Shown here piece after piece: positions 1-64,000 of a stretch of 64,000 bases of DNA (within the stretch, counting starts at the first letter, position 1; each line of letters starts with the position of its first letter). This DNA comes from Candidatus Fraserbacteria bacterium (GTDB lineage Bacteria; Bipolaricaulota; Bipolaricaulia; RBG-16-55-9): positions 14,062 through 78,061 of the forward strand of contig JBBIOR010000004.1 in NCBI GenBank assembly GCA_037443265.1. Direction: 5' to 3'. A program made the translations under genes and the position numbers. The notes under the pieces were generated by a model that was given only the letters and a program-made list of their open reading frames with translations, made no database searches and had not been told where the DNA came from.

Positions 1-214
1 TGGCGTTGATCTCGTCGCGGGCGATCTGCGCGCCCCGCTGGGCCGAAACACCCACCTGGAAATTCAAGATAAGAGGAACAAGAAGACCCACTCTGATGGG
101 AGGGGCTGAGCCTTGGGCTAGCGCCGGGGAGAGTGCCAGCGTGCCGAGCCCTGCCCCCAAGACCTTGAGAAACTGCCGGCGGTTGATGGCCGCCGCCCCT
201 CCAGAAGACATCAT
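1..214 (-). CDS. N-terminus of a Tat-exported ABC substrate-binding protein (LivJ/LivK branched-chain amino acid family); runs off the window start
   Basis: Not in the ORF track. My translation of the reverse complement from ATG at 214 is MMSSGGAAAINRRQFLKVLGAGLGTLALSPALAQGSAPPIRVGLLVPL...AQRGAQIARDEINA. It has a twin-arginine RRQFLK signal, an ALA cleavage site, the 'IRVG..VPL...GA.IA.DEINA' pattern of Leu/Ile/Val-binding proteins, and an upstream AGGGGGAG RBS. Confidence 0.8.
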   Translation of the reverse strand, partial: MMSSGGAAAINRRQFLKVLGAGLGTLALSPALAQGSAPPIRVGLLVPLILNFQVGVSAQRGAQIARDEINA

Positions 215-349
215 AATTGATTCTCCCCCTATAGGGCGCTGCTCCAGGGCCGGGAACAGAGTAGGGCCTCCTGGGCGTCGGCGTCAAGTCCGTGGAGGGA
301 TTGGCATCTCCTGGGCCAAGGGCTAGAGGAGAATCAAATTCAAGATGGA

Positions 350-769
350 CTAACGCCGCCGGCGGTCGAGATAGCCCTGCAGGATGAGAACAGCGGAGAG
401 CATATCGCGTAGTTCTTTGCGCTTCCTGCGGCTGAGATCCGCTTCGAGGAGCACCCGTTCGGCTTCCGCCGTCGTGAGTCGCTCATCGCAGAGTTCCACG
501 GGGATCGGGAGAGCTTCGGCGAGGTGGCGCCGGAACTCGAGAATCTCTTGGGCTTTCGGGCCGAGTGAGCCGTCCATGTTCACAGGCAGTCCGATCACGA
601 TCCTTTCGATTTCTTCAGCTTGTACGATACTTTTTAGATATTCGAGATCTTCCGTCAATGAGCGGCGAATATGCCTATCCAAGCCGCGGGCAATCGTTTG
701 GGTCTCGTCGCTGATTGCCAGCCCCATGCGCTTCTCTCCGAGATCGAGCGCTAAAATTCGTCGCTTCAT
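350..769 (-). CDS. ruvX: YqgF/RuvX family pre-16S rRNA nuclease / Holliday junction resolvase-like protein
   Basis: ILALDLGEKRMGLAISD, VIGLPVNMDGS, DERLTT, D..SAVLILQGYLD motifs; 139 aa. Confidence 0.95.
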   Translation of the reverse strand: MKRRILALDLGEKRMGLAISDETQTIARGLDRHIRRSLTEDLEYLKSIVQAEEIERIVIGLPVNMDGSLGPKAQEILEFRRHLAEALPIPVELCDERLTTAEAERVLLEADLSRRKRKELRDMLSAVLILQGYLDRRRR

Positions 770-56837: not shown

Positions 56838-57617
<780 letters not shown>

Positions 57618-57642
57618 CCCCCTTGTGCGTGGTGAGATCATT

Positions 57643-59079
57643 CTACCACCTCCTCTGGAAGCGATTCCGCAGGACGATGGCCGTCATGTTGAGCAATAAT
57701 AAAATTCCAAGGAGCACGACGATGGCCGCGGAGGCGATCGTCGCAAAACCCTCCTGGGGCTTGGTAGCCCAGTCGAAGATCGCAAGCGGGATGACCGTAA
57801 AACTATCTTTTAAGCTTGTGGGAAGGTACGTCACATAGAGGAAGGCCCCCAGCAGGATGAGCAGGGCGGCCTCACCGATGGCCCGCGAGAGGGTTAAGAT
57901 CATGGCCGTAAAGATTCCCGGCAGAGCATAAGGGAGGACGTGATGGCGCACGGCCTGCCAGGGGGTGGCCCCCATGCTCAGGGCAGCTTCCCGCACCCAG
58001 GGGGGCACGCTTCTAAGAGCCTCGCGGGTTGCCATGATCATCACGGGGAGAATCAAAAGAGCCAGGGCGATCCCGCCGGCGAGGATGCTCCGGCCCAAGC
58101 CGGCTCCTCGGGCTAAGATCTCCAGTCCAATGATGCCATAGACCACAGAAGGCACGCCGGCCAGATTGGCAATGAGCACCTGAATGATCTCCAAGAGGGC
58201 ATGGCGTGAAGCATACTCTTCGAGATAGATGGCCGCTCCGATTCCCAGAGGAAAGGCCACGGTAGCCATGACGAGCATGACATAGAACGAGCCCAAGATC
58301 GCGCTGGCCAGCCCAGCCTGCTCGGGATAGCGTGGCTCGTTGAGATTCGAAACGAAGGCCCAGAGGGCTCTCAGTGCATTTCGCTTAAGAGGCAAATCGC
58401 CCTGCTGAGAAGCATCTAACGGCAGATCGAGAAATCTTCCCTCGCGCTCCACTCTGAGCGAGATAGGTCCACCGGAGATCTGCGTGGTGATCACGATGGC
58501 CTCCCAGGCTTGGCGCGTCCCTGTGATGGGCAGACCTCCGGCTGCCAGCAACACGTCTTCAGGCTTGAGTCCGGCGCGCTCCGCAGGCGAGCCGGCCGCA
58601 ACCTTGGCCAGTCTTACGCGAAATCGGCCAATCTCATGGGGGATGGGCTCCGCTCTAAGCTCGCCCAAGAGCTGCTTCACTGCCGGAACCCAGGAGATCC
58701 TTAAGCTAATCTCCTGTCCTCCGGGGGCTCGTTCTACGGCCTCCCAAACGGCTGACACTCTCTGGACGGGAAGATCGGCCACACGGATGAGGGCATCCCC
58801 CTGGTGCAGCCCGAGCTTCTCGGCCGGCGAGCCTCTGGCCACTTGAGCCAGCGTCACGTACGGGAAATAGCGCTGATCTCCGCCCACTTCGAGTTGGAGG
58901 CTGCGCAAGGAGAGCGAGACTCCTGCGTCGGCTGTGGCGCGCATGGCGATTAGCTGCGAGCTGCTTAGCAAAGTTTGCCGCAAGAGCACGGCGACTACAA
59001 TGAGCCCCAGAGCCAGTGACAGAGCTGCCAAAAGAGCAAACAACGCGCCTTGGCTGCGACGCCAAAGTCTTCTATTCAT
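57643..59079 (-). CDS. pstA: Phosphate ABC permease PstA with two tandem PDZ domains in the first extracytoplasmic loop
   Basis: Own RBS AGGAG and ATG at 59079; TM1, two V..GSPAE..GL...D.L PDZ units, then AG...[47 protein letters not shown]. Confidence 0.88.
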
Positions 59080-59988
59080 AGCGCTCCTGGAAGCGCGCAC
59101 GATGAAATAGCTGGCAATGTTGAGCACGAGTGTGATCACAAAGAGCAGCAGCCCAATGGCAAACAATGCCGACCAGATGAAGGCCGTGGCCTCATGGTCG
59201 CCAGTGGCGATGTTCACGATGGTCGTCGTAAGGACCATCATGGGCTGGGTGGGATCCGGCGGCCAAGCGGGAGTTCTTCCGGTGGCTAGGGCCACGATCA
59301 TCGTCTCTCCAATCGCCCGCGACATGGCCAGAATAAACGCCGCGCCGATGCCCGAAAGACCCGCTGGGATGACCACGCGGCTGATCACTTCAAATTTCGT
59401 AGCTCCAAGGGCGTAAGCAGCCTCTCTCAAGGAGCGGGGCACCGCATATAGAACGTCTTCGCTGAGCGAGGCCACCAGGGGCAGGATCATAAAGCCCATG
59501 ACCACTCCTGCCGAAAGCCCATTCCAGAAGCCGATCCCGGGGAAGAGCTGCTGCAGCGCCGGGGTGACGAAGCGCAGAGCAAAGAAGCCATAGACTACCG
59601 TGGGGATTCCCGCAAGAAGCTCCAGCGAGGGCTTTAGGAGGCGTCGGGCTCGCTCTGAAGCATATTCGCTCAAGAAGACGGCGCTTAAGAGCCCCAAGGG
59701 CAGGGCTACGGCCAGGGCGATGCCCGTAATCACAAGCGTATCCGCGATGAGGGCGAGCACGCCATAGCTCTGAGGCACGGTGAGCGGAGCCCAACGCAGA
59801 GAGCCGAGGAACTCTCCCAGGGAGACCCTCTGGAAGAAGGGGAGACTCCCCAAGATGAACGTCCCGGCGGTGATGGCAGTGATCAAGACAGCGACGAGGC
59901 TGCAACTGGCGAGGAGCCCTTGGATCAGCCCTTCTTTGAGATGGCGCCCGCGGGGGGCTTTCAGCTCACTGGCCACAATGCTTCTCAT
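59072..59988 (-). CDS. pstC: Phosphate ABC permease PstC (3' end shifted into frame with pstA by an apparent 1-bp deletion)
   Basis: LKPSLELLAGIPTVVYGFFAL, SEDVL.AVP.SLREAAYALGATK, SRAIGETMIV; an out-of-frame canonical ending FQERYE* is visible at 59092-59072. Confidence 0.88.
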
Positions 59989-61105
59989 AAAGCTGCCGGA
60001 CCTCTTCTCCAGTAAGCCCCGAGACGGTACCGCCGAAGGCCGTACCCGTGACGCGCTTCTGCCAGCACTCTCGGGCCGCCTCCCGCAGCTCCTCCGGAAT
60101 ATTGACATAGCCTATGTCCTGCATGAACTCCTCGTTTCCGAGGATATCCTCCGTCAAGAAGAAGTCGACGAAGGCCGAGACAGCCGCGCGCCGGGCGGAC
60201 TGAGTGTTGGTATAGAGGAAGAGCGGGCGGCTTAGGGGCTGATACTGAAAGCTCAAGATGGCATCCAGGCTAGGCAGGACACCCTGGCAGCTGCCGCCCT
60301 TAATTTCCAAGGGTCTTTTGCTATTGGCTGCCCGGCGGGCATTGATTTCAGAGAGAACGCTCTGGGGAGTGTCGATGAGTGTGCGGCGCGGATCGATGGC
60401 CACGGCCTGCACCCGCCCTTGATTGTTGATGAAGAAGGCAAAGCCAAAGTACGTCAAAGCCAGAGGATTCTGGCCGGTCTGCTCGGCCAAGAGCTGATCT
60501 TCCTCGGTGCCGAAGTAGTCACTACGGGTGTCTCCGGTCCGCTCGTTGATGGCCTCAGTGAAGAAATCGAACGTTCCTGAAGTCTCTGCGGCTCCGGAGA
60601 GCGTGATGGGGGCATCGATGAAGCGGTTGCCCAGCTGGCTCCAGTTTGTGATAAAACCCTCAGCCTCACGAGACCAGAGGAGCTCCAGCTCTCCCACGGT
60701 CATGCAGGGTTTGCCGTCTTGGAAGATCTGAGTGTCGCGAGCTACAGCCACTGTAAGTCCATCGAAGGCGACTAGCGACTCGATGTACTCCAGATTATTG
60801 TGCTGGGCTTGTTCCATTTCGGAGGGTCTGATGGGACGGGAAGCGTCATTTATATCAGTTTCTCTGGCCAAAAATCTCCGGAAGCCGCCGCTGGTGCCGC
60901 TTATGCCCACGGAGATCTTCACATCGGGGCGGAGCTTGACAAACTCGGCGGCGACGGCTTGGGTGAGGGGGGCCACCGTGCTGGAGCCATCGACGATGAC
61001 GTCTCTGGAATCCAGAGGGGCCGTGGGCTGTGAGTGGGAAAGAGCACCAATCAATCCAAGAAGTGCTAACCCCGTGACCAGTACCAGAAGGAATCGCCTG
61101 TGCAT
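59966..61105 (-). CDS. pstS: Phosphate ABC substrate-binding protein PstS
   Basis: DGSSTV.P, SGTSGGF..F...TDI.DASRPI, SGTFDFF, YFGFAF, Y.PLSRPLFLY; signal peptide with no lipobox Cys. Confidence 0.93.
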   Translation of the reverse strand: MHRRFLLVLVTGLALLGLIGALSHSQPTAPLDSRDVIVDGSSTVAPLTQAVAAEFVKLRPDVKISVGISGTSGGFRRFLARETDINDASRPIRPSEMEQAQHNNLEYIESLVAFDGLTVAVARDTQIFQDGKPCMTVGELELLWSREAEGFITNWSQLGNRFIDAPITLSGAAETSGTFDFFTEAINERTGDTRSDYFGTEEDQLLAEQTGQNPLALTYFGFAFFINNQGRVQAVAIDPRRTLIDTPQSVLSEINARRAANSKRPLEIKGGSCQGVLPSLDAILSFQYQPLSRPLFLYTNTQSARRAAVSAFVDFFLTEDILGNEEFMQDIGYVNIPEELREAARECWQKRVTGTAFGGTVSGLTGEEVRQLYEKHCGQ

Positions 61106-61292
61106 GTCGAATCAACCTCCGATATATATTTGCTATGCTGAATATATCTCTAAGCAATTCAGCGATCAAGAGCGGCAAAATTGTCAAGATGGACGGATTT
61201 CAGTCCTGTTTGAGAATCTCTAGATCTCCTTCTATCTAGACAATCTATAATATATATTGAACTCAATAGCCATTGGGAGGCCACAGGAGGAG

Positions 61293-62408
61293 ATGGGGTT
61301 GAAACAGCGAGGGCGGCCTCAGGAAGAGCGAATCTTAGGGACAACCGCTGGAGGCAGCACGTATATGATCACCCTGCCCAAAGACTGGGTGGAGGGGCTT
61401 AAACTCAAGAAGGGGGATGCCCTCACGCTGGTCCCGGTGGGATCGGGCATATATCTCTATCAGCGGCGTGAGCCGGAGTCCGCTGCCACCCGCACGCAGC
61501 TTAAAGTCGATGAGGCGTTGACCGGTGACGCGCTCGCTCGGGCTCTGATTTCGCTCTATATTGCCGGCTTTGATGTCATCGCAGTTTCAGGTCATCTCTC
61601 CGAAGAGCAGCGCGCCGTGGTGAGAGACACGGCCCAGCGCCTCATCGGGGAGATCCTCCAAGAGACCGATGACTGGCTCCTGATCCAGACTCTGCGCGAT
61701 CCACAGGTGCTCTCCGTGCCGCAGCTTCTGGGATACATCTATGAGAATGCGGAAGAGATGCTCAAGGAAGCCTCGGATGCTCTTCTGGAGGGGGATTTAA
61801 AGAAGGCCGGGCGGGTCATCCGGCGCGACGAGCGAGTGGATCGATTCTTCTTGCGCTTATCGCGCCAGCTCTATGCGGCCCTCAAGGAGCCCCTGGCGGA
61901 GGTCGAGCGAGGCATCTCACGGGTGGATTTCTTCAACATTCACACCGTGGGTCGTCAGCTGGAGCGCGTGGCAGATCATGCCGTCAAGATCGCCTGCGAG
62001 GCCCAAGCCCTCATCGAGAAGGAGCGCAGGCTCCCTGCGGAGCTGGAGAGGAGCGTCACCCGCGTGCGAGATGAGGTGCAGAGGCTCTTGGCTCAGGCTA
62101 TGGGTGCCTTCCTGCATCTCAGTGGAGAGCAAGCCCATCGGGCCATGGCGGCTCTGCGCCCCATAGAGAGGCTGATCCAGAGGCTCGATGAAAGAGTACT
62201 CGATCTCAAAGATCCTCATCTGGCCATTGTGAGTGACAGCTTTGGCCGAGTGAAGGATTACGCGGCCAATATTGCAGAAGTGGCGCTCAACGCGGAGGCG
62301 CTCACACGCGGAAGACCCTCGCGCGGCAACGGCCGGGGCAGTGAGTCATTCGGCCATGGGGACCACGAGTACAGGCCGAGTGGTGCCCCGGACGATCTGG
62401 GTGGCTAG
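61293..62408 (+). CDS. AbrB/MazE-PhoU fusion phosphate-uptake regulator (archaeal type)
   Basis: N-terminal GGSTYMITLPKDWV..L.LKKGD.L swapped-hairpin domain, ISLYIAGFD.I.V, two PhoU repeats (RDERVDRF, LERVADHA.KI, RVKDYAANIAE); divergent from pstS. Confidence 0.88.
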   Translation: MGLKQRGRPQEERILGTTAGGSTYMITLPKDWVEGLKLKKGDALTLVPVGSGIYLYQRREPESAATRTQLKVDEALTGDALARALISLYIAGFDVIAVSGHLSEEQRAVVRDTAQRLIGEILQETDDWLLIQTLRDPQVLSVPQLLGYIYENAEEMLKEASDALLEGDLKKAGRVIRRDERVDRFFLRLSRQLYAALKEPLAEVERGISRVDFFNIHTVGRQLERVADHAVKIACEAQALIEKERRLPAELERSVTRVRDEVQRLLAQAMGAFLHLSGEQAHRAMAALRPIERLIQRLDERVLDLKDPHLAIVSDSFGRVKDYAANIAEVALNAEALTRGRPSRGNGRGSESFGHGDHEYRPSGAPDDLGG

Positions 62409-64000
62409 ATCCGGTCCGGACACCGGCGGCCGGATGCTGGGAGAAGGCGCACCCAGGATAATCAGGTCATAGTCGCCCAGATGGGCCTCACGCAGAATGC
62501 GCTCCAACGCAGGCTCTTCTGCGATCTTGACTGCGCTTGTGATGCCCAGAGCCTCCAACGAGGCCTGGGCTTGGCACAGGTGCCTCTCCACCCGCGCTCG
62601 CTCCTCAGGAGTTTCTTGAAAGCGGTGTACATGTAGCACGGTCACAAAGGCGCCGATGTGTCGGGCTAGCCTTCCGCCGAAGCGCACAGCGGCCTTCCCT
62701 GGCTCGCCCGCCGCGGTGCAGATCAAGATCTTCTTCAGCGGCCGTGGCTCCACGATGAGCAAGACCGGAAGAAGAGCCCGCTCCAGCAGGGGCCGGCCCA
62801 GCCGATCCAGATCGACAGTCGACTTCGCAGAGCGACCCAAAATGACCAACTCATAGGGCTCCGCTTCCACTTCACTTAAGATCGCCTCGATCGTAGAGTC
62901 TCCTTGGCGCAGGCGGGTTTCGAGGCGTGGGAGCCGAGCCTGCCAGCGCTGGTGCAGCCCTTCCAAATGATCACGCATGGCGGAAGAGCTCGCTTTGCAG
63001 GAGGCTACAGCCAGCAGCGTGGCGGGGCCACGGGCCGCTTGAGCCAAGAGGCACCCATACTCGACGGCTGCCTCGCCCGCTGGAGAGCCGTCTGTACAGA
63101 TCAGAATCTTCAAGCCGGTTGGCTCAAGGATGTGGTATCGTCGGATCCCGATCCACAGCTTCTGGCCGGGAGTGAATAGACAAACCGGCTGGGCTTCGCT
63201 CGGTTGAACAGCCTCTATGGGCGTAGTGCGCTGGCCGTAGGCGCGTGGCGGAGCCACAGGCCGAACCCCTCCCAAGCCCTCGACCTCCAGGCGGAGGCGC
63301 TGCAGGGAACCCACAAAGACCCGCTCGACGACCTCTCCTTGGCCGAGCACGTGAAGGCCGCTATTGGGGGGAAAGGGCTCTGGCTGGAGCACGACGCTTT
63401 CGGGCCGGAAGAGGACCCGCACCGGCGCGCCCTCATCGTGGTCCGGCGCGTCCGCAGGGAAGGGCAGAGTCACGGCTCCCAGCTGAATCTTTTGGTCTAA
63501 GGCCCGGCCCACCAGCACGTTTCCGCTGCCGAGGAAGGCGGCCACGAATTCCGTCTGTGGACGATGATATAGATCCTCGGGGCTGCCAACTTCGATCAGC
63601 CGGCCTCGATCAATGACCCCGATCCTGTCGGCCAATTCAAAGGCTTCCTCTTGATCATGAGTCACGAGAATCGTCGTGATCTTGAGCCGACGTTGGATCT
63701 CCTTTAGACTTTGGCGCATCTGAGCGCGAATCTTCACGTCCAGTGCGCCGAACGGCTCGTCCAGCAGCAGCACGGCCGGCTGATACGCCAGGGCGCGAGC
63801 CAACGCCACGCGCTGCTGCTGTCCCCCCGACAACTGATCGGCATAGCGCGTGCCCAAGCCTGTGAGTCCCACCAGCTCCAAGAGTTCTTCCACTCGCTTC
63901 TTGCGCTCTTCTTTGGGAACATGGCGGATGCGCAGGCCAAATTCGATGTTCTCCGCCGCTGTCATGTGGCGGAAGATCGAGTAATTCTGAAAGACGAAGC
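62346..64000 (-). CDS. CysA/ModC-like ABC ATPase fused to two universal stress protein (USP) domains; 5' end outside the window
   Basis: [55 protein letters not shown]-like segment, then twice KILICT.....AV...A...T.L.V...Y.L.ILG.....PVL.V USP folds. Confidence 0.85.
   Translation of the reverse strand, partial: FVFQNYSIFRHMTAAENIEFGLRIRHVPKEERKKRVEELLELVGLTGLGTRYADQLSGGQQQRVALARALAYQPAVLLLDEPFGALDVKIRAQMRQSLKEIQRRLKITTILVTHDQEEAFELADRIGVIDRGRLIEVGSPEDLYHRPQTEFVAAFLGSGNVLVGRALDQKIQLGAVTLPFPADAPDHDEGAPVRVLFRPESVVLQPEPFPPNSGLHVLGQGEVVERVFVGSLQRLRLEVEGLGGVRPVAPPRAYGQRTTPIEAVQPSEAQPVCLFTPGQKLWIGIRRYHILEPTGLKILICTDGSPAGEAAVEYGCLLAQAARGPATLLAVASCKASSSAMRDHLEGLHQRWQARLPRLETRLRQGDSTIEAILSEVEAEPYELVILGRSAKSTVDLDRLGRPLLERALLPVLLIVEPRPLKKILICTAAGEPGKAAVRFGGRLARHIGAFVTVLHVHRFQETPEERARVERHLCQAQASLEALGITSAVKIAEEPALERILREAHLGDYDLIILGAPSPSIRPPVSGPDLATQIVRGTTRPVLVVPMAE

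Follow-up and report, generated by a model that had tools for sequence, protein, structure and literature searches.

Organization of the pst locus

The window analysed here, a stretch of 64,000 nucleotides from a Candidatus Fraserbacteria genome (phylum Bipolaricaulota), carries a phosphate-transport operon on its minus strand. Pfam and NCBIfam profile matches identified pstS, a single open frame holding both pstC and pstA, pstB, and phoU (Table 1). Within the 821-aa frame, TIGR02138 matches residues 61-339 and TIGR00974 residues 583-818, and the database gene call for this frame (P0002) is 781 aa long. The second half of the frame was assigned to PstA on three grounds: a score above the curated cut-off of the equivalog model TIGR00974, a type I ABC importer fold, and the pst operon context. 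The gene that lies divergent to the operon encodes an AbrB/MazE-PhoU fusion protein, which, judging from its domains, is likely a candidate phosphate-responsive regulator of the pst operon.

Table 1. Features of the pst locus in window coordinates.
Feature	Position	Strand	Evidence
pstS, long form, 379 aa	59966..61105	-	PBP_like_2 2.1e-24; TIGR02136 206.7 bits (cut-off 206.6)
Open frame holding pstC and pstA, 821 aa stop to stop	57643..60108	-	
pstC-pstA from likely start Met41 of the 821-aa frame, 781 aa and stop	57643..59988	-	
PstC part, 303 aa	59080..59988	-	TIGR02138 263.2 bits (cut-off 196.45)
1-nt deletion site relative to three relatives, 7-8 codons ahead of the ancestral pstC stop	59095..59096	-	DNA alignment
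PstA part, 478 aa and stop; ATG at 59077..59079	57643..59079	-	TIGR00974 219.3 bits (cut-off 193.45)
PstA TM1, residues 11-40	58960..59049	-	Model helix 2-40; hydrophobic run after a positively charged N-terminus
PDZ domain 1, PstA residues ~50-133	58681..58932	-	PF17820; model secondary structure; DegP/DegQ PDZ profile matches
PDZ domain 2, PstA residues ~134-232	58384..58680	-	PF17820; PDZ_6 best stretch, residues 502-537 of the 821-aa frame
Conserved P1-loop tip motif, PstA residues 248-253	58321..58338	-	phmmer alignment to 9k3x_A; PMC12976172
pstB, 267 aa	56838..57641	-	ABC_tran 1.6e-31
phoU, 225 aa	56149..56826	-	PhoU 1.4e-39, two stretches
Divergent gene, AbrB/MazE-type DNA-binding domain and PhoU domain	61257..62408	+	MazE_antitoxin 2.9e-08; PhoU 3.2e-19

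An earlier note on this DNA had treated PstA as an open reading frame of its own, 478 aa in length. This does not hold for the present genome, where no stop codon separates pstC from the PstA part. All 11 relatives' loci that were compared have a stop codon for pstC and a separate pstA frame, and the fusion is thus found in this genome only. It results from the 1-nt deletion listed in Table 1, which brings pstC in frame with pstA; the ancestral pstC stop (TAG) can still be read in another frame at 59072..59074, where it overlaps the pstA start. Such a fusion is topologically possible, as judged from the structural match of PstA, because both of the joined ends are cytoplasmic in E. coli PstC and PstA. 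Fused PstC-PstA proteins also exist elsewhere, with two permease stretches found by Pfam in 9 of 49 long PstA representatives. The sequence AGGAG, 4 nt upstream of the pstA ATG, could still permit separate initiation of PstA.

One Logan contig from run X1 spans positions 57600-59226 at a depth of ~17 and matches the window with 0 differences and no indel. The deletion site reads the same in this contig; contigs leave an error at the level of reads possible. Run X1 may be the source sample, and its contig is therefore a check on the assembler and not on the reads. Since this independently assembled sequence is identical and a PDZ part is also joined to a permease domain in 119 of the 120 best homologues, an assembly chimera, which the earlier note had named as a possible artefact, was rejected. 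Runs X2 and X3 yielded nothing. Two short Logan contigs of run X1 lie over the pstC part at 59197..59313, and the 5 base differences seen in one of them suggest that a variant strain co-exists.

PstA contains two PDZ domains

A Pfam search of the 821-aa frame returned BPD_transp_1 (3.3e-34) together with PDZ_6 (8.9e-14, two stretches), PDZ_2 (6.7e-12, two stretches), and PDZ (4.2e-08), the combination of two PDZ domains and a permease domain that the earlier note had expected of such a scan. At E <= 0.01, these families were the only ones found, with no protease or signalling domain among them. When the organism's 1.69-Mb genome was scanned with PF17820, PstA gave two separate matches above the cut-off of 27 bits, one for PDZ1 (27.7 bits, 58696..58848) and one for PDZ2 (34.4 bits, 58492..58605). 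The two peptides from which a PDZ tandem had been proposed are both present in the minus-strand frame at 57643..60108, as PstA residues 74-105 and 154-185. The insert to which they belong comprises ~190-200 residues (PstA 41-240) and is flanked by TM1 and by the region aligned to TIGR00974 from profile position 36 onward. In a profile search with the insert, the closest sequence relatives were the PDZ domains of DegP/DegQ (2e-09), and the PDZ tandem of the Aquifex RseP homologue aq_1964 (3wkl) matched in one stretch across both domains (4.4e-09). NCBIfam models for HtrA and RseP cover the PDZ parts only, with scores far under their cut-offs.

We built an AlphaFold2 model of the 478-residue PstA part from an alignment of 42 sequences (mean pLDDT 86, pTM 0.77). 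The insert, at residues ~50-232, is modelled in blocks of pLDDT 83-95 and shows the strand and helix pattern of two PDZ units. Foldseek matched it to the tandem PDZ domains of DegQ/DegP over 174-219 columns at E-values from 9e-07 (3pv2) to 4e-05, with TM-scores that are low because the query was the whole 478-aa model. The core of the model matched E. coli PstA (9k3x_A, 1.3e-12). VIA-align superposed the model (range 1..477) on the same chain with a Z-score of 24.1 and an rmsd of 3.5 over 275 of 281 residues at 29% identity, aligning TM1 and the core and looping out the insert; the next non-Pst entry was MetI (Z 20.0). These VIA-align matches concern the transporter cores only and say nothing on the PDZ part. 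Pfam, the PF17820 matches, and the model with its Foldseek hits agree on a tandem of PDZ domains between TM1 and the PstA core, as the earlier note had read it. The two PDZ domains in PstA are genuine.

In the 42-sequence alignment, residues G187, Q190, A191, and W192 of PDZ2 are invariant or nearly so. The main helix of this domain begins with a conserved G-T-R-Q-A-W motif. Residues R250, P252, and E253, which belong to the tip of the loop that follows the insert, are also conserved.

The PDZ pair is placed in the first periplasmic loop

PstA residues 242-253 align with residues 64-75 of E. coli PstA (phmmer, 9k3x_A). By this alignment, the PDZ pair belongs to the P1 loop, the first one on the periplasmic side, and directly precedes the tip that contacts PstS in E. 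coli. This homology and the positive charges at the N-terminus ahead of TM1 lead us to infer that the pair is extracytoplasmic, in line with the location that had been proposed for it. The passages of PMC12976172 on docking describe P1 loops (TM1-TM2) of E. coli PstA and PstC that reach into the cleft of the docked PstS, with PstA Pro71 and Pro73 contacting PstS and the PstS N-lobe resting on PstA. In the same passages, PstS did not bind PstCAB without ATP, and the encounter was transient enough that cross-links were needed to capture it (PMC12976172).

PDZ-bearing PstA proteins form one lineage within Bipolaricaulota

Of the 120 homologues that best match the PstA part, 119 combine PDZ_6 with BPD_transp_1, most of these being 435-496 aa long; the remaining one is a fragment of 293 aa from a contig of 1.7 kb. 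Homologues that carry a name are labelled just 'PstA' of Candidatus Bipolaricaulota, Acetothermia, or Bipolaricaulis, with two labels of 'Planctomycetota' metagenome-assembled genomes. Because public records annotate the family only as 'PstA', the PDZ feature is invisible in current annotation.

A scan of 184 species genomes from the phylum gave pstA matches at E <= 1e-10 in 107; one truncated case (G087) is ambiguous, and 76 weaker matches are outside this count. By our reading, the match extends over the PDZ insert in 38 of the 184 genomes, which are members of families f1, f3, and f4 and of three genera in family f6. The other matches among the 107 begin at residue ~232-255 and thus correspond to canonical PstA. 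A pattern scan derived from the insert alignment confirmed 18 loci among 185,579 species genomes, labelled as Bipolaricaulota (11), Acetothermia (2), Fraserbacteria (2), and, automatically, as 'uncultured Clostridia/Thermotogae/Thermotogaceae' (3). Of 14586 matches in a library of 1.84 billion representatives, the best 150 included 7 that contained the insert. Pfam was applied to 49 of the 148 new representatives, namely those of at least 400 aa among P0122-P0195; the others were checked by the insert HMM alone, which added only a fragment (P0126). PDZ-PstA was therefore not found to be common outside the phylum among the best 150 of 14586 matches or by the pattern scan, searches that would miss one ranking lower or lacking the two search patterns.

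In a FastTree phylogeny of the PstA core, the 22 PDZ-bearing proteins form one bipartition against the 127 others with a support of 0.999; 18 of 167 rows, two of them PDZ-bearing, had been left out for short core coverage. This topology points to one insertion event that was inherited within Bipolaricaulota. Among the 49 long representatives, Pfam detected DUF3333 in 19 and the PstS-like PBP_like_2 in one (P0192). The N-terminal periplasmic region of PstA seems to accept many different modules. PBP_like_2 stands ahead of the permease core in P0192 (740 aa), and CcmE takes this place in P0167 (988 aa). A divergent PDZ-bearing PstA (P0123, 602 aa, 41% identity) has ~120 extra residues in the PDZ1 region (~95-215); these resemble a parvulin-type isomerase domain by eye and gave no Pfam match at E <= 1e-4.

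PDZ-PstA occurs with a long form of PstS

The closest solved homologue of the operon's PstS is 4jwo (5.5e-78). Compared with it, PstS has ~27 additional aa internally (profile positions 241-267) and ~33 more at the C-terminus (beyond position 344), which bears out the additional tail that the earlier note had seen. Its signal peptide contains no Cys; the four Cys residues are at positions 134, 273, 347, and 377. PstS has no lipobox, as had been noticed before. The argument that such a protein needs a tether is weak, however: with an Omp85/BamA homologue (77.6 bits) and two Lgt homologues encoded in the genome, a soluble periplasmic PstS would be normal in this cell.

Long PstS proteins with 55-79% identity to that of the window, nearly full length where complete, are found in 41 genomes of the phylum. 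All 38 genomes with PDZ-PstA are among them; in the remaining three (G092, G029, and G026, which are 70, 87, and 82% complete), PDZ-PstA was not found. With the exception of G092, a long PstS was found in no genome that has canonical PstA alone. Genomes with canonical PstA instead have a PstS of ~280-300 aa that aligns at residues ~30-240 only, with ~30% identity. This co-occurrence reflects co-inheritance and does not count as independent statistical support, since both genes lie in a single operon and the genomes that carry them are relatives of each other.

An alignment of 36 long PstS proteins shows the extra tail in every one of them, and 4 continue for a further 13-20 residues at the C-terminus. 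These proteins end in L (15 cases), Q (7, among them the window's own PstS), K (5), or one of N, S, P, R, F, H, and D (9 together). The four Cys residues are all present in 24 of the 36 proteins and all absent in 12. From this all-or-none pattern, Cys377, which lies two residues from the end, is probably part of a disulfide, and the pattern as a whole suggests two optional disulfides in long PstS, one of which would pin the tail.

A contact between the PDZ pair and PstS is predicted

The complex between PstS (residues 25-379) and the PDZ-containing part of PstA (residues 41-250) was predicted from alignments that we supplied ourselves. The three runs scored 0.62, 0.55, and 0.63, against 0.00, 0.00, and 0.02 for three controls. 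They share at least 86% of their contacts, and the pLDDT of the partner is at least 82. Of 157 solved complexes, 116 reach the mark used here, as do 2 of 215 mismatched pairs; this calibration is rough here because of the supplied alignments. No solved structure of PstS with a PDZ domain is known to us, which makes it unlikely that the predictor merely reproduced a complex it had learned.

On the PstS side, the predicted interface includes residues 123, 226-233, 274-288, 325-330, 338, and 365, with nothing beyond 365. On the PstA side, it includes residues 57-62, 69, 71, 78-79, and 93-94 of PDZ1 and residues 140-153 and 187-190 of PDZ2, against which PstS 276-288 is placed. The contacting elements of PDZ2 would be the strand after the 'LLG' loop and the start of the main helix, which form the usual PDZ groove. 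The interface is no more conserved than the rest of the proteins (PstS, 0.59 versus 0.72 overall; PstA insert, 0.62 versus 0.56). Moreover, segment 274-288 is conserved in PstS proteins generally, as its alignment to 4jwo indicates, and it therefore leaves the exclusive pairing of long PstS with PDZ-PstA unexplained. The prediction supports binding of PstS by the PDZ pair via an internal segment. The general idea of the earlier note, that the PDZ pair holds the binding protein, fits this outcome (0.62 versus 0.02); the ligand that it had proposed, the C-terminal tail, does not.

A possible role in PstS docking or retention and its alternatives

PstS is free in canonical Pst systems and meets the transporter by transient collision. 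In the present operon, the PDZ pair may be an accessory module that sits within the P1 loop of PstA and binds the operon's own long-form PstS. The contact would be made by the PDZ2 strand at 140-145 and the start of its main helix at 187-190, by the PDZ1 strand at 57-62, and by PstS 274-288 with neighbouring residues. By this contact, the pair would keep or pre-position PstS above the PstC/PstA pore, and a receptor kept close, whether by retention or by faster docking, should aid uptake when phosphate is scarce. The domains, their position and conservation, their single origin, and their co-occurrence with long PstS are observed, and the PDZ-PstS contact comes from the model only. The presence of different modules (DUF3333, PBP_like_2) at this site in further PstA lineages and the conservation of the PDZ2 groove residues both argue for this reading. 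We consider the chances that the PDZ pair is a built-in docking or retention module to be evenly balanced. A bolder version, in which the tandem is a permanent clamp on PstS that grips an internal surface segment and the P1 loop of PstA is a plug-in site that individual lineages have filled with receptor-handling modules of their own (PDZ, DUF3333, PstS-like domains), is put forward tentatively, as somewhat more doubtful than that.

The PDZ pair could also form a cap over the pore that acts as a steric gate or scaffold, admitting only the cognate PstS or stabilising the membrane domains without stable binding. The PDZ tandem of RseP is size-excluding, and the layout here is RseP-like: the two domains occupy a periplasmic loop of a polytopic membrane protein, next to the docking site. 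A gate of this kind is unlikely, however, given the confident and reproducible interface in the complex prediction. Slightly less probable again is a sensor or regulator as in DegS or RseP, which would sense peptides or unfolded envelope proteins and switch phosphate transport or Pho signalling. The relationship of the insert to the PDZ domains of DegP/DegQ and to the aq_1964 tandem across both domains would suit such a function, as would the conserved groove residues of PDZ2. However, Pfam finds no protease or signalling domain in the protein, the operon gives no hint of a link to envelope stress, and the strict pairing with a special PstS, together with the predicted contact, favours PstS as the ligand.

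The pair might instead bind another envelope component and place the transporter at particular sites, such as polar prosthecae. For the related organism Acetothermia Ran1, prosthecae and a connection to low phosphate are described (PMC6092417), together with an unusual envelope that resists classification and comes with some outer-membrane genes. This argument is purely circumstantial and leaves the pairing with long PstS unexplained, which makes an anchor of this kind improbable. Least probable of all is that the PDZ domains tether PstS by classical binding of its free C-terminal tail, since, although every long PstS has the tail and 15 of 36 end in Leu, a typical PDZ ligand residue, 21 of 36 end otherwise, 4 of 36 run on past this point, the Cys pattern (24 versus 12) suggests a tail pinned by a disulfide, and residues 370-379 lie outside the predicted interface.

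Comparison with known systems

The operon has the same content as that of E. coli PstSCAB, and the PstA core and P1 tip align with those of the E. coli structures (9k3x, 9k3s, and 9k3y; PMC12976172). In contrast to E. coli PstA, which is described there as a protein of 296 aa with a short P1 loop, PstA here carries an insertion of ~190 residues in P1 that makes up the two PDZ domains. PstS is also ~60-100 aa longer, and pstC and pstA share one frame in this genome. The PDZ tandem has the same fold and arrangement as those of DegP/DegQ and RseP (aq_1964, 3wkl), and it shares its setting in a membrane protein with RseP. Unlike the HtrA and RseP proteases, the protein has no protease domain and its host is the permease of an ABC importer; its predicted ligand would be a folded partner protein rather than a C-terminal peptide.

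PstA proteins that bear DUF3333 or a PstS-like domain also have an extra module in the N-terminal periplasmic region. However, the inserted folds differ, and the cores of the PDZ-bearing proteins form a clade of their own (support 0.999). The arrangement further differs from the OpuA/GlnPQ type, because PstS is encoded by a separate gene with its own signal peptide and no substrate-binding protein domain is present in PstC-PstA. In the maltose transporter MalFGK2, the P2 loop of MalF is a folded periplasmic domain in a permease loop that contacts the substrate-binding protein. The role proposed for the PDZ pair would be the same in kind, although the fold (Ig-like in MalF), the loop, and the transporter family differ, and the likeness is one of functional analogy only.

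Our literature searches found no description of a PDZ-bearing PstA, in agreement with the earlier note, which knew of no such Pst permease. The main text of two papers on Acetothermia (PMC6092417 and PMC9586279) mentions neither Pst nor PDZ. PDZ-PstA is thus a real and conserved variant of the Pst importer that is apparently undescribed. How binding proteins find and leave ABC importers limits uptake under nutrient scarcity. A transporter that holds its PstS, if confirmed, would provide a stable complex for structural work and a third mode of receptor attachment, in addition to covalent fusion and to anchoring by a lipid or a transmembrane segment. It would likewise extend the uses of bacterial PDZ domains past proteases. 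PDZ-PstA may help explain how small-genome subsurface Bipolaricaulota survive at low phosphate.

A further gene on the minus strand, at 62346..63998, is cut by the end of the window and encodes an ABC transporter ATPase with a C-terminal extension of ~270 aa. Pfam places a Usp (universal stress protein) domain at residues 422-547, and by eye, a second Usp-like stretch perhaps precedes it.
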